From IMG/VR virus record IMGVR_UViG_2531839193_000016: a stretch of DNA of 64,000 bases, one strand, 5' to 3'. Made by a program: the position numbers. Below, piece by piece: positions 30,001 through 36,000 of this stretch. Every line of letters begins with the position of its first letter. The first letter of the stretch is position 1. Origin of the DNA: a virus (Duplodnaviria; Heunggongvirae; Uroviricota; Caudoviricetes).

Positions 30001-33000
30001 GCTTCTCCAGCGAAGTGATGGCGTGGTTTACCGTATCACCACCTCCCTGACCGGTAAGGCCGGTACGCTGAATGTCAGTGTGGAAGCCGAAAGTGCCGGT
30101 CGTGCGGGGAATGCCCCGGCAGGGACAAAACTGACATTTATCACACCGCAGGCGGGGATCAACCAGACGGCCACGGTGACCGGAACGGGGATCACCGGTG
30201 GTGCGGATGTGGAAACCGTGCCGGAGCTGCTTTCCCGTCTGGTTTTCCGGGTGCAGAATCCACCGTCCGGCGGCACGCAGTATGATTTTGAACGCTGGGC
30301 GCGTGAAGTGCCGGGCGTGACGCGGGCATGGTGCCGCCCGGAATGGCCGCAGGCGGGCAGCGTGGGGGTAACGTTTGTTCAGGATAATAACCCGGATATT
30401 TTCCCCGGTGACGGTGATGTTCAGCGGGTGGCGGATTATATCCGCAGTCATGATGATCCGGCGACCGGCCAGCCTGTCGGACAGCCTCTGGGGCCGACGG
30501 TGACCGTGTTTAAACTGACCAATAAGCCGGTGCCCTTCAGCATCAGGATCATCCCGAAAACACCGGAGAATCAGGCGGCCGTAAAACAGGCGCTGACCGA
30601 CCTGTTGTATAACGAATCCCGGCCCGGCGGTCTGGTTCTGCCGTCGTCTTTCTGGCGGGCGGTGGCAGGGGTGAAAAATCTGGAGGATTTTGAAGTGCGC
30701 AGTCCGCTGACGTCAGTTCAGGCGGGAGACAGTGAGCTGCTGACGGTAGGAGAAATCACATGGCTGTAACCCTGACCCCGCATCAGCGCGCCCTGTTGCA
30801 GTTACTGCCTGACGGGCTGGCATGGGACAAGCGTCCGTCATCCGTACTGGCATCATTATGTCTGGGCCTCAGTCATTCGACAGCGCGTGTATCCTGGACG
30901 GGTAAACAGCTGCTTGCCGAGCGTTTCCCTGACACGTCGCGCCTGCTGCTGGAAGACTGGGAGCGTTATCTCGGGCTTCCCGAGTGTGATATGGCCGGAG
31001 CCACCCTCACGGAGCGACAGCGTTATGCCGGAAATAAATACCGGATGAAGCCCTCGCTGAACCGTGAATTTTATATCCGGTTTGCGGCGGAGTTTGGTTA
31101 TCAGATTGACATTCAGCCCTCACCGGATTCGCAGTGGGTCAGTATTGTCACGATTAACAGTGAAACCGGCTACCGGAATATGAATGTGCTGGATGATATT
31201 CTCACGCCGCTGCGTATTTATGAAGGCGGTGCGCTGGAATGTATTCTGAACCGTTATAAGCCTGCATGGCAGACGTTTATTTACGTTTATGCAAACAGCC
31301 ATGAAGAGGAGACTATTTAATGTTTCATGTTGATAATAATTCCGGCGTGGCGAATATGCCTGCGCTGGCACCGGCGCAGAGTAATACCACCACCTGGTTT
31401 ACCGAAGGTGACGGACAAAAGGTATCAGCTGGATTGGTCAGGACTGGCTGAATATTCTCCAGGCCGAACTGCTGAATATTCTGGCTGAAGCCAGTATTCA
31501 GCCGGATAAGGCGCAGTTAAACCAGCTTACGCTGTCCATTAAAGCCATTATCGCTGCGAATGCCTTTTCCCGGAAAAATAACCTGAAAGAAATTGCTGAT
31601 GCCGGTGCGGAGGCCCAGCGTCTGGCCCGTGGTTATCTTGGTCTGGGGACGCTTGCCACAAAAAACAGTCTTGGTCCCGCTGACGTTAATGCCCTGGCGA
31701 AGGATCAGAATCTCGCCGACCTGGAGAATAAGGGAACCGCCCGTAATAATCTGGATGTTTACAGCAAAAGCGAAGGTGATAACCGTTACCTGCGCAGGGA
31801 GCAGAACGGCGCAGACATTCCGGATAAAGGGGCTTTTATCGATAACGTCGGTTTACGGGAAACGGTAAACAGGGCGGCGAATGCCCTGCCATCGGACGGC
31901 ACCGCCGTTGCCGCGAACAGGCTGGCAAATGCCCACACAATTAATGGTGTTCCCTTTGACGGGACGCAGGATATCACTATCTCATCAGGAACAGTAACCG
32001 CCATAAGACTGGGGTCGGTGACCGCACATATGCCCGGAACATGGGAAAGCTGGGATCTGAATCTGGGGGGCGGCAATGTTCTTACCGGAATTAAAGTACA
32101 GGATGTCGGTAAGAATACGGCAGATAACGTCGGCGGCGTGTATTACCGGCCGTTGCAGTATCTGTTAAATGGAGCATGGGTGACGGCTGCAAGTATATAA
32201 TGATATTCAGAAGGCCTTCCGGCCTTCTTTATTACTGTGGCTGCTCAGGCCATTTAATGGCGTTAAATTCAGCTTCTGTTTTAATGGCGGGTAGTTCCAT
32301 TTTCTTCACCTGACTGATGTATGCCATCCATTGGGTAAGTGCTGCTCTGTCTTCATCGCTGATGGTGCCCAGTTGTAGCTCCGTTCTCCAGTCATTAATT
32401 TTTTCATATGCCTGATTAAGATATGACTGGCGCATTGCTTCCAGTTTTCTTGCGTAGTTAACCGGAATACGGGAGATTATGCCATTATCAAACTTCCAGT
32501 TTCCTGAAATATCCGTGCCTTCAGGGAGTTCATCGACCTCAACCACAGAAAACCCCGCAGGATACAGCGCCGAGGCGTCCTGTGATATTGAGCAGATAAC
32601 GCCGCTGTCAGGTGTTATGCAAAGTTTATATTTTTTGGTGAATAATGGCAGGGATTCGTAGAAATCCTTACCATCTTCACTCTGGAAATACTGAACATTA
32701 TTACCATATGGCATATTTTCAGGATAATAACGGGTTATATTTTTTAGTTCCATAAAATCCTCCTGGAAATAAATCTGTTTTAAAATATATTATTTACTGA
32801 CTATTTATAACTGAGATACCGTAATCCATGTACCTCCGACTAATTTTTGCAGGGGTCTGAATGCTATAAAATCGTTTGAAGCATCAACTTTACTGTCAAT
32901 CTGCAGGCCTGCCATAACATTACCGTACGCAGAGTAATATGCCCCACCGTACATTACCTGCCTGTTCTCTGCTCCCAGCCTGATATCCTGGATATATCGG

Positions 33001-36000
33001 GAATCCGCATCCTGCTGTGTTATACCAGAAGTGATGTTTATGTCCTGCGTCCCGTCAAAGGGAACCCCATTAATATTTCTTGGGGTGGCGAGTCTATTCG
33101 CGGCAACGGCGGTGCCGTCCGATGGCAGAGCATTCGCCGCCCTGTTTACCGTTTCCCGTAAACCGAGGTTTTCAGGAAAGCCAGGATTAACTCTGTTTTA
33201 TTCCTCATGCGACAATTCCGGCTTTTTATAATAAGGAAATCGTATGCTGATTGGGTATATCAGGGTGTCAACAAATGACCAGAATACGGCGCTACAAAGA
33301 AATGCGCTGGAATGTGCAGGATGTGAGCTGTTTTTCGAAGACAGAATAAGCGGTAAGACAAGGGAGCGTCCCGGACTTAAACGCGCATTAAAGCGACTCC
33401 GGCCAGGGGATACCCTGCTGGTCTGGAAACTGGATCGCCTTGGACGCAGTATGCAGCACCTTGTCCTTTTAACAGAAGAACTCCGGCAACGCGGCGTTAA
33501 CTTCCGCAGCATTACGGACAATATTGATACATCCACTCCCATGGGACGTTTCTTTTTCCATATAATGGGCGCGCTGGCGGAAATGGAGCGGGAACTCATT
33601 ATTGAACGTACACGCGCGGGTCTTGCTGCTGCCCGTGCTCAGGGGCGTCATGGCGGCAGACCTCAGAAACTGACAGAGAAAGAGCGGGAGCAAATCGCCC
33701 GTTTGCTGGCTAATGGCGAGTCCCGTAAACAAATCGCACTGATATTTGATATTGGCCTTTCCACCCTTTATCGTTATTTTCCTGCCTCACCAGCTCCGTC
33801 ACCAAAAGTACCGTGACGCTTTTTTGAATTTCCGCAAAACACATATTTTTCAGCGGTCGCTATTCTGACTCTGTTTAATTCAGAAACAGGCAGAAAAGAC
33901 GATGTCAGACTCCAAGTGGAAAATGCTCTCCGCCATGCCCGGAGAGTTTTCAGTCAAGGTTGCCGGTGGCACGGTGGCATTTATTGAAAGCCCTTTCCGC
34001 CCTTCGGGTAATAAAGGGGGGATCACCTTCGCAGACTGCGTGATCCGCTTCAGCACGAAAGAGCCATTATGGGTAATGCCGGTATCCGGTAATCCCAGTG
34101 CAGAAATCACCAGTTCAGGCGTGACTGGCATCATTCCAATCACATCTGACGTGGCCGGAACGCTCACGCCCTCCGACTGGAATGCACCGGATAACGCCGG
34201 GCCTTCCGGTAGCACGAATGGCAGCAGTTCAGAGCCGGAATATTACTTTGTTGTCATTCTCGCGGGTCAGTCAAATGGCATGGCCTACGGCGAGGGGCTG
34301 CCGTTACCGGATTCGTTTGACCGCCCGGACCCACGCATTAAGCAACTGGCACGCCGCAGTACGGTAACGCCCAACGGTACGTCGTGTACATACAACGACA
34401 TCATTCCGGCAGACCACTGCCTGCATGATGTTCAGGATATGAGCGGGATAAACCACCCGAAAGCTGATCTGGCAAAAGGCCAGTACGGGACTGTCGGTCA
34501 GGGGTTGCATATTGCCAAAAAACTGCTTCCCTATATCCCACAGAATGCCGGGATACTTCTGGTGCCCTGTTGTCGTGGCGGGTCAGCATTCACCACTGGA
34601 GCCGACGGCTCATTCAGTGAGGCCAGCGGTGCTTCCGCTGATTCTTCACGCTGGGGGCCGGTAAACCTCTGTATCAGGACCTGGTAAGCCGCACCAAAGT
34701 CGCGCTGGCGAAAAACCCGAAAAACAAACTTCTGGCTGTGGTCTGGATGCAGGGAGAGGCAGACCTTGCCTCAGGAAGCCAGCAGCATAATAGTTTATTC
34801 ACGGCCATGGTTCAGCAGTTCAGAACTGACCTGGCTCCGCTTGCTGCGCAGTGCGTGAGTGGAAATGCCACCACGGTGCCGTGGATTTGCGGTGATACCA
34901 CGTATTACTGGAAAAACGCTGGCACCGATAAATATGAGGCAGTATACGGTGGCTACAAAGGCAAGGAAGCACAGAAAATTTTCTTTGTACCGTTCCTGAC
35001 GGATGAGAATGGACAGAGCACGCCAACGAATGCTCCGGCGGAAGACCCGGATATTGTGGCTGTCGGGTATTACGGTGCAGCATCCCGAACCCAGGGCAGT
35101 TTTGTTTCGACACAGCGTGACAGCCATTTCAGCTCATGGGCACGCAGGGGCGTCATTTCAGACCGTCTGGCCTCAGCTATTATGCTCCATGCAGGGCGCA
35201 CGGCTGAACTGATGCGCGGGCAGACCGTGACACCACCGGATGAGAAGCCGTCACCTGATACACCATCAAAACCGTCCACGCCACCCGCAGACACCACGAC
35301 GATGAGTACGCTATTTGCTTACCGGGCATCTGAGTCTGAAGGACGGTTGACACCACAGGGTTGGGCTGCCGGAGGTGGCAAGGCTCAAATCGTGGATGAT
35401 GCCGGAGCCAGCGGGGGTAAGGCAATGAAACTGACCAAGGAAACAGGAAGAGCCCCCTGGTACCTTGAGCATGATGCTGGTAATGGTGCGGACCTGCTGG
35501 GTAAAGGTGGTCTTGTCAGTTGTCGTTTTAAACTCGATGGCGCGCTTACGGCTAATCAGTACGCACTGGCGCTGTACTGGCCGGTTTCTGCCCTGCCGCA
35601 AGGGGTTACTCTGGAAGGAAATGCCGGTCATAACCTGCTGGCATCGTTCTACGTACAGAGCGATGCCACAGACCTTAACGTGATGTATCACAAAGGAAAC
35701 ACGGCGCAGAACACGAAGCTGGGGTCATTCGGCGCATTTAATAACGAATGGCATACGCTGGGCTTCCGTTTTGCCGGTAACAACAGTATTGAGGTGACGC
35801 CGGTCATTGATGGTAAGGACGGGACACCATTCATGCTGTCGCAGTCTCCGGTCGGCACGTTTACGGCAGACAAGTTGCGCGTGACCGATATCACTAAAAA
35901 TGCGACTTACCCGGTACTGATTGACAGTATCGTGGTGGAAGTGAATAACGCGTAAGCAGGATAAAAAATGCCGCCGGTAAGGGAAAACAAGAAACCGGCG

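Follow-up and report, generated by a model that had tools for sequence, protein, structure and literature searches.

A Gin-type tail-fibre switch with a single assembly chaperone gene in a Mu-like prophage lineage of Escherichia coli

Results

The stretch of DNA analysed here, hereafter the window, comprises 64,000 nucleotides (nt) of the IMG/VR virus record IMGVR_UViG_2531839193_000016 and contains, from position 1 to ~38.3 kb, a Mu-like prophage embedded in E. coli DNA. Its tail-fibre gene (31320-32200, + strand, 293 amino acids) lies directly after gp48, downstream of the baseplate genes gp43-gp48 (26188-31320), and runs into an invertible segment of ~1.3 kb that holds one fibre tip, Sv, on the + strand and, on the - strand, a single tail-fibre assembly chaperone gene, tfa, together with a second fibre tip, Sv′. 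The layout is that of a Gin/gix switch that works like the G segment of phage Mu but without paired chaperones. An earlier note on this DNA had proposed an asymmetric Gin-type invertible segment of the Mu G kind, with one tfa gene in place of two and with an expressed fibre that has no chaperone gene downstream on its own strand. All of its elements are present at the coordinates given below, the fibre and tfa are on opposite strands, and within the Mu-like prophage a tblastn search gave no second homologue of Tfa.

The constant part of the fibre, Sc (31320-31849, +), lies outside the segment. Its residues 1-190 resemble the Mu tail fibre protein S (PDB 5YVQ_A, E=9e-46; 8JU3_A, E=9e-47), and the fibre also matches the tail fibre family PHROG 1833 (E=7e-141). 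In the orientation of the window Sc is in frame with Sv (31850-32200, +), a variable fibre end of tip type A that converges with tfa, and a terminator scan placed a terminator-like, G+C-rich hairpin followed by a T-run (32209-32228, +) between the stop codons of Sv and tfa. In the window, the loss of 1 nt from an A-run at ~31417-31421 breaks the open reading frame (ORF) of the fibre after ~33 codons, as seen in the alignment to a related locus (L001). E. coli genomes that are otherwise 100% identical carry an intact fibre gene of 882 nt, and the deletion is most likely an assembly error.

The chaperone gene tfa (32232-32753, -) encodes 173 amino acids and is the only one of its kind in the segment. 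Its product matches Pfam Caudo_TAP over residues 55-173 (E=5e-19) and PHROG 136 (E=5e-56), aligns over residues 18-153 with the Mu protein U (5YVQ_B, E=4e-16), and combines the variable N-terminal fibre-binding domain and the conserved C-terminal helical domain that mark a Tfa protein. Upstream of it lies an AT-rich spacer of 51 nt (32754-32804, -) with a strong Shine-Dalgarno sequence, AGGAGG, and then Sv′ (32805-33164, -), a promoterless alternative fibre end of tip type B that lacks a start codon of its own and becomes joined to Sc upon inversion. Translation of both fusions, the flipped one after inversion in silico, gave full-length fibres of 293 and 296 amino acids, alike through residue 180 save for one substitution, which is a difference between two source genomes. 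The flipped Sc-Sv′ fusion corresponds to an annotated protein of 296 amino acids, WP_032184567.1, in the genomes FORC_043 and NCCP 13983. The two tips are 31% identical to each other, which is consistent with different receptors for the two orientations.

Two inverted-repeat arms bracket the segment. The left arm (31841-31989) is coding sequence common to both fibre variants (GLRETVN...) and pairs with the right arm (33025-33173) in two consecutive blocks, one of 86 nt that is 93% complementary (31841-31926 with 33088-33173) and its continuation of 50 nt that is 84% complementary (31940-31989 with 33025-33074). Each arm overlaps a gix-like 26-mer. The left crossover site, inside the fibre ORF at 31836-31861, is TTATCGATAACGTCGGTTTACGGGAA, that is, TTATCGATAACG-TC-GGTTTACGGGAA, and the right one, at 33153-33178, is TTCCCGTAAACCGAGGTTTTCAGGAA, or TTCCCGTAAACC-GA-GGTTTTCAGGAA, so that the TC and GA core dinucleotides are mutually complementary. 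Compared with the boundaries of the Mu G segment taken from NC_000929 (left, TTATCCAAAACCTCGGTTTACAGGAA; right, TTCCTGTAAACCGAGGTTTTGGATAA), the left site is identical at 22 of 26 positions to the left boundary and the right site at 21 of 26 to the right one; the dyads thus align to validated gix sites. A degenerate gix pattern matched these two places alone in the 64 kb, with 0.00 matches expected from 100 shuffles, and the crossover site falls at a codon of the fibre gene homologous to that of Mu (FIxNxGLxETVN).

Beyond the right site, outside the segment, lies a gene for a gin-type serine DNA invertase of 190 amino acids (33244-33816, +; Pfam Resolvase, E=2e-51; HTH_7, E=5e-15), whose ATG begins 65 nt past that site. 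The protein is 72% identical to Mu Gin and Ser9 is aligned within the conserved motif YIRVSTNDQ. In Mu, the Fis-dependent recombinational enhancer is located in the 5′ part of gin; the region from the right site into the 5′ part of gin has here a mean column identity of 82% with Mu, including an identical block of 21 nt, a figure that speaks of conservation only. On these sequence features, the system belongs to the Gin/gix serine invertase systems.

When the flipped sequence built in silico was searched in complete E. coli genomes, both flipped junctions were matched by four genomes at 99.7-100% identity over 1559 nt, and in 15 other genomes the inner segment alone was matched on the opposite strand, which corresponds to the orientation of the window. 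In DLI.5a and in TOE17 there are two prophages of this kind, which point in opposite directions. In FORC_029 and NCCP 13983 the prophage sits in the same disrupted elfC gene in opposite orientations; both flanks are collinear at 99.8% and only the middle 1.35 kb is inverted. The repeat arms are identical solely over 31848-31884, beginning at the gix core, and since natural sequences match the in silico construct at 100%, the natural exchange must have taken place within that interval of 37 nt. These comparisons indicate that inversion between the two sites does take place. The earlier note had considered that the element may be locked. Such an element would be the relic of a switch that had ceased to invert, and it is true that the orientation of the window prevails, being found in 22 of the 28 IMG/VR loci of the lineage and in about three quarters of assemblies. 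However, the other six IMG/VR loci are flipped, the two orientations coexist at near identity, even at one shared insertion site, and both gin and the two sites are intact, which also counts against a relic. Moreover, 10 of 41 draft contigs of the lineage end within 200 nt of the site, compared with 4 of 20 at true Mu-type loci, as populations of mixed orientation would produce. We therefore regard a locked element as scarcely credible.

Carriage of just one tfa is fixed throughout an entire lineage. Prophage sequence was matched in 238 of 5426 complete genomes, the E. coli lineage being widespread. All loci whose Sc is 63-100% identical to that of the window have exactly one tfa between Sc and gin; one tfa was counted in at least 35 loci of the lineage, compared with two in every complete Mu-type locus. 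The rule of the Mu G type that each tip is followed by its own tfa thus does not hold in the window or in the loci of its lineage. Five tip types can be distinguished. Position 1, convergent with tfa, is always occupied by tip A or C, and position 2, just upstream of tfa, by tip B, D or E, in the combinations A/B, A/E, C/D and C/E. The retained Tfa is U′-like in its C-terminal domain, and the tfa found right after C-like and A-like tips in SfMu, P2 and P1 is U-like. Most simply, these comparisons would be explained by a Mu-like ancestor that lost its U-type gene.

Does the orientation of the window yield a functional fibre? Against the copy of STEC2017-197, which has the same layout, the ratio of non-synonymous to synonymous substitutions (dN/dS) of tip A is 0.089 at a synonymous divergence (dS) of 0.49, and for tip C dN is 0.105 with dS saturated. 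Tip A, which has no chaperone gene behind it, is thus under strong purifying selection. In addition, a gin-less sub-lineage shares one deletion that runs from the 3′ end of Sv′ to the last 66 nt of gin. Having lost both Sv′ and gin, it is frozen in the orientation of the window. Its members (L003/L102 in E. coli M3, L103 in M18 and L104 in CI5; in IMG/VR, L024-26, L036, L045, L047 and L050) were found in three disrupted genes, flgL in M3, hsdR in M18 and xdhA in CI5. In these three prophages the tail genes are intact and no phage gene is flagged as a pseudogene, and the three different insertion sites imply independent insertions by a working phage. Their tfa is intact too (dS 0.22, dN/dS 0.15; range of dN/dS 0.10-0.23), similar to the baseplate genes gp46-48 with their dS of 0.17-0.25 and dN/dS of 0.01-0.11, so the convergent tfa is under selection where inversion is impossible. 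As a separate observation, the 304-nt region from tfa to the DUF6645 gene differs at 14 positions only among the gin-less loci, in which dS of the neighbouring genes is ~0.2.

Taken together, the selection on tip A, the existence of the gin-less lineage and its selected tfa make the fibre of the window's orientation very probably functional. This bears on the earlier suggestion that an assembly-competent fibre might be made only after inversion, which does not fit these data. In its strongest form, that suggestion makes the orientation of the window an OFF state with misfolded or absent fibres, and only the flipped orientation would give infectious phage. The lack of a chaperone gene in cis and of a detectable tfa promoter would agree with an OFF state. 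Nevertheless, the low dN/dS of tip A and the low dN of tip C, the occupation of position 1 by A or C across lineages with Sc 63-100% identical, the fixation of the gin-less lineage in this orientation at three independent insertion sites, and the prevalence of the orientation among assemblies all speak against it, and we hold it to be very unlikely.

Discussion

In Mu G, P1 C and e14 P, tip and chaperone are switched as a pair, and this pairing is usually read as a sign that every tip requires a Tfa of its own. How could one tfa serve both tips? In the model that we propose, Gin, encoded just outside the segment, exchanges DNA at the two 26-bp sites and thereby joins Sc to tip A, as in the window, or to tip B, as in the flipped form, a step shown by the sequence and by the comparison with relatives. 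The tfa gene would in turn be a stand-alone cassette for a generalist chaperone, with an upstream spacer and a ribosome-binding site of its own, and its expression would not depend on read-through out of the fibre gene. Both orientations would then give assembly-competent fibres, and inversion would alter the receptor-binding tip alone. This combination of an active switch with a stand-alone tfa serving either orientation is the explanation towards which we lean, and its stand-alone tfa step draws on comparative genomics.

Two lines of evidence point to such a generalist, independently expressed Tfa. The first one concerns the protein. According to work on Mu summarised in PMC9608196, the fibre-binding part of Tfa is the N-terminal domain. 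This domain shows 84-92% identity among loci in which the neighbouring tips share just 30-41%, and the G proteins of P2 and L-413C and the U protein of Mu are nearly identical despite differing fibre tips. The second one concerns the spacer before tfa, which measures 51-90 nt in single-tfa loci, where it is AT-rich and carries a strong ribosome-binding site, compared with 2-11 nt in two-tfa loci. In a sister class with a spacer of 86 nt, its mean divergence is 0.064, compared with 0.37 at tfa synonymous sites, that is, it is six times more conserved, and this spacer is retained even ahead of a very different tfa allele. The spacer of the window (32754-32804) is therefore a candidate site for tfa's own expression signals. 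Another spacer class (class ii; L005 3288-3340 and L006 3257-3310) is conserved and open in frame with tfa, and would encode 17 hydrophobic amino acids, MAIVLFLFLSLIYMVMF, if translation began at an upstream ATG. We set aside an N-terminal hydrophobic extension of Tfa through this spacer (MAIVLFLFLSLIY...), because its ATG has no Shine-Dalgarno sequence and the other spacer classes lack it; the class-ii spacer is probably non-coding.

Several observations weigh against a stand-alone tfa that serves both tips. A consensus scan of the minus strand ahead of tfa gave no sigma-70 promoter in the window, in STEC299 or in the Stx2c-inserted phage, and the two matches that it gave in Citrobacter are no more than expected by chance. 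The C-protein box of Mu, TTATN6ATAA, confirmed in the Pmom region of Mu itself (L008 ~6197-6210), is absent from the tfa spacer. When the regions upstream of tfa were aligned across sub-lineages, the three spacer classes proved unrelated, with no common motif. The binding of a U′-like Tfa to tips A and C is a prediction only. Finally, recombination, a common event in the tail-fibre regions of phages, can bias estimates of dN/dS from pairs of sequences, and some tfa pairs are more diverged than the non-coding DNA that flanks them. On a different matter, the lone copy of TTATN6ATAA in the Mu-like prophage, TTATTCCCGCATAA at 36292-36305, lies just upstream of a DUF826 gene (36317-36571).

The same missing promoter would fit another explanation, namely that tips A and C fold without any Tfa and that the one tfa acts solely for the tip just upstream, be it B, D or E. 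The switch would then offer by turns a fibre made without chaperone and one that depends on Tfa and is perhaps capped by it. The fixed arrangement of the tips, A and C never being beside tfa and B, D and E always, and the terminator-like hairpin that closes the fibre transcript right after Sv would agree with it as well. On the other hand, the gin-less phages, which lack a B, D or E tip, keep tfa intact with the dN/dS values given above; C-like tips (54-59% identical) in SfMu, in Mu-type loci and in Citrobacter immediately precede a tfa; the related tip of Cronobacter phage CR3 likewise has a tfa immediately downstream; and the A-like tips of P2 and P1 precede a tfa. We consider this explanation unlikely. 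To the same small degree we would credit its extension, that inversion changes not the tip alone but also the chaperone status of the fibre, whose receptor-binding end would be "naked" in one orientation and "Tfa-capped" in the other. Tips A and C would have come to do without a Tfa transcribed along with them, or without Tfa altogether. Tips B, D and E would in that case be made together with abundant Tfa, and in Mu, Tfa remains bound to the fibre tip. If this were true, the retention of tfa in the gin-less phages would reflect a second role.

A chaperone for the fibre of the window's orientation might also be supplied in trans, either by other prophages in the cell or by a few prophage copies that flip during lytic replication. 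A second Caudo_TAP gene does exist in the window, in the neighbouring lambdoid prophage (48466-49047, -), and Tfa proteins look generalist. Yet supply in trans leaves the selected retention of tfa in gin-less phages unexplained, infectivity would hinge on the prophage content of the host, and what the lambdoid Tfa has in common with Mu U is the C-terminal domain alone. This possibility appears to us still less likely than chaperone-free folding of tips A and C.

The comparison with Mu G, P1 C and e14 P, which the earlier note had drawn on, holds as far as the kind of inversion is concerned and breaks down at the paired tfa genes of those systems, which are missing here. In the Mu G segment (S, U, U′, S′, gin), and likewise in its close relative SfMu, Sc lies outside the segment, the site is inside the fibre ORF at a homologous codon, there are two convergent alternative tips and the invertase gene is just beyond the right site; the sites are identical at 21-22 of 26 positions, Gin at 72% and Sc at ~47-49% by sequence. 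Mu differs in having both U and U′ where the window has one tfa, in its segment of 3 kb compared with 1.3 kb, its fibre of 504 amino acids compared with 293-296, its inverted repeat of 34 bp compared with ~150 bp, and its gap of 2-5 nt before tfa compared with the 51-nt spacer. Moreover, Mu has only com/mom beyond gin, whereas here a gene with SASA and DUF6645 domains is present between gin and com/mom.

The P1 C segment with cin also carries an invertible fibre-tip segment and a Gin-family invertase, and in a P1-like record (MH422554) one tip is 52% identical to tip A, but in P1 the tips enclose two convergent tfa genes. The e14 P segment of E. coli K-12 (stfP, tfaP, tfaE, stfE, pinE) shares an inversion of the Pin/Gin family inside prophage tail-fibre genes and differs in its context, that of a lambdoid side tail fibre and not of a Mu-type baseplate fibre, and in having two tfa. 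For e14 P, both orientations have been described among sequenced strains, with a segment of 1797 bp and two tfa (PMC12529663).

A parallel layout is found in Citrobacter braakii ATCC 51113 (L012) and in the IMG/VR locus L064, where a fibre (+), one tfa (-), a promoterless tip (-) and an invertase (+) follow each other, with a spacer of 69 nt before tfa and an Sc that is 74% identical. They differ from the window in a fibre of 472 amino acids, a Tfa of 229 amino acids with a different C-terminal domain, and a third site-like repeat; the relatives L053 and L054 have two tfa. The third gix-like repeat of L012 (5319-5352 / 7690-7723) lies between the promoterless tip and the invertase, besides the main pair, and hints at a multi-site, Min-like inversion system.

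A limited literature search found no description of a single-tfa segment of the G type. What this lineage offers is a widespread group of E. coli prophages in which the pairing of tip and chaperone is broken, with two tips, one tfa and viable-looking derivatives without invertase. If it is true that one stand-alone Tfa serves diverged tips, then tips would be freely exchangeable cassettes, which would have a bearing on the evolution of host range and on the engineering of phage and tailocin fibres with a single helper gene. The question raised is whether Tfa acts on tips with no more than 30-40% identity, and which promoter drives its gene.

Neighbouring genes and sequence errors

The gene right after gin (33902-35955, +; 684 amino acids), which is split in the window, combines a SASA domain, similar to sialate O-acetylesterases, with DUF6645 (PHROG 143, function unknown). 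Judging from its domains, the protein might be a surface-glycan esterase used at adsorption. The com/mom genes of the Mu-like prophage follow at ~37.25-38.18 kb.

Compared with the 99.6% identical locus L001 (strain JE86-ST05), the window has four single-base homopolymer deletions within 9 kb, at ~29660, ~31417-31421, ~34653 and ~35963, by which gp46, the DUF6645 gene and the gene for the fibre are interrupted. The pattern is that of long-read assembly errors and not of real pseudogenes.

To the right of the Mu-like prophage (38652-64000), the window contains an IS110-family transposase gene at 38652, mlaA at 42037 (-) and a gene of the formate/nitrite transporter family at 43086, and then a tRNA-Arg(CCT) gene (44094-44168), a phage integrase gene at 44294 and an IS1 element at 46964 (-). 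A lambdoid tail region follows on the minus strand, with the tfa gene mentioned above (48466-49047), a side tail fibre gene (49047-52136) and a gene for a probable tail-tip protein J (52782-56279). This is a second prophage, inserted at the argW site.

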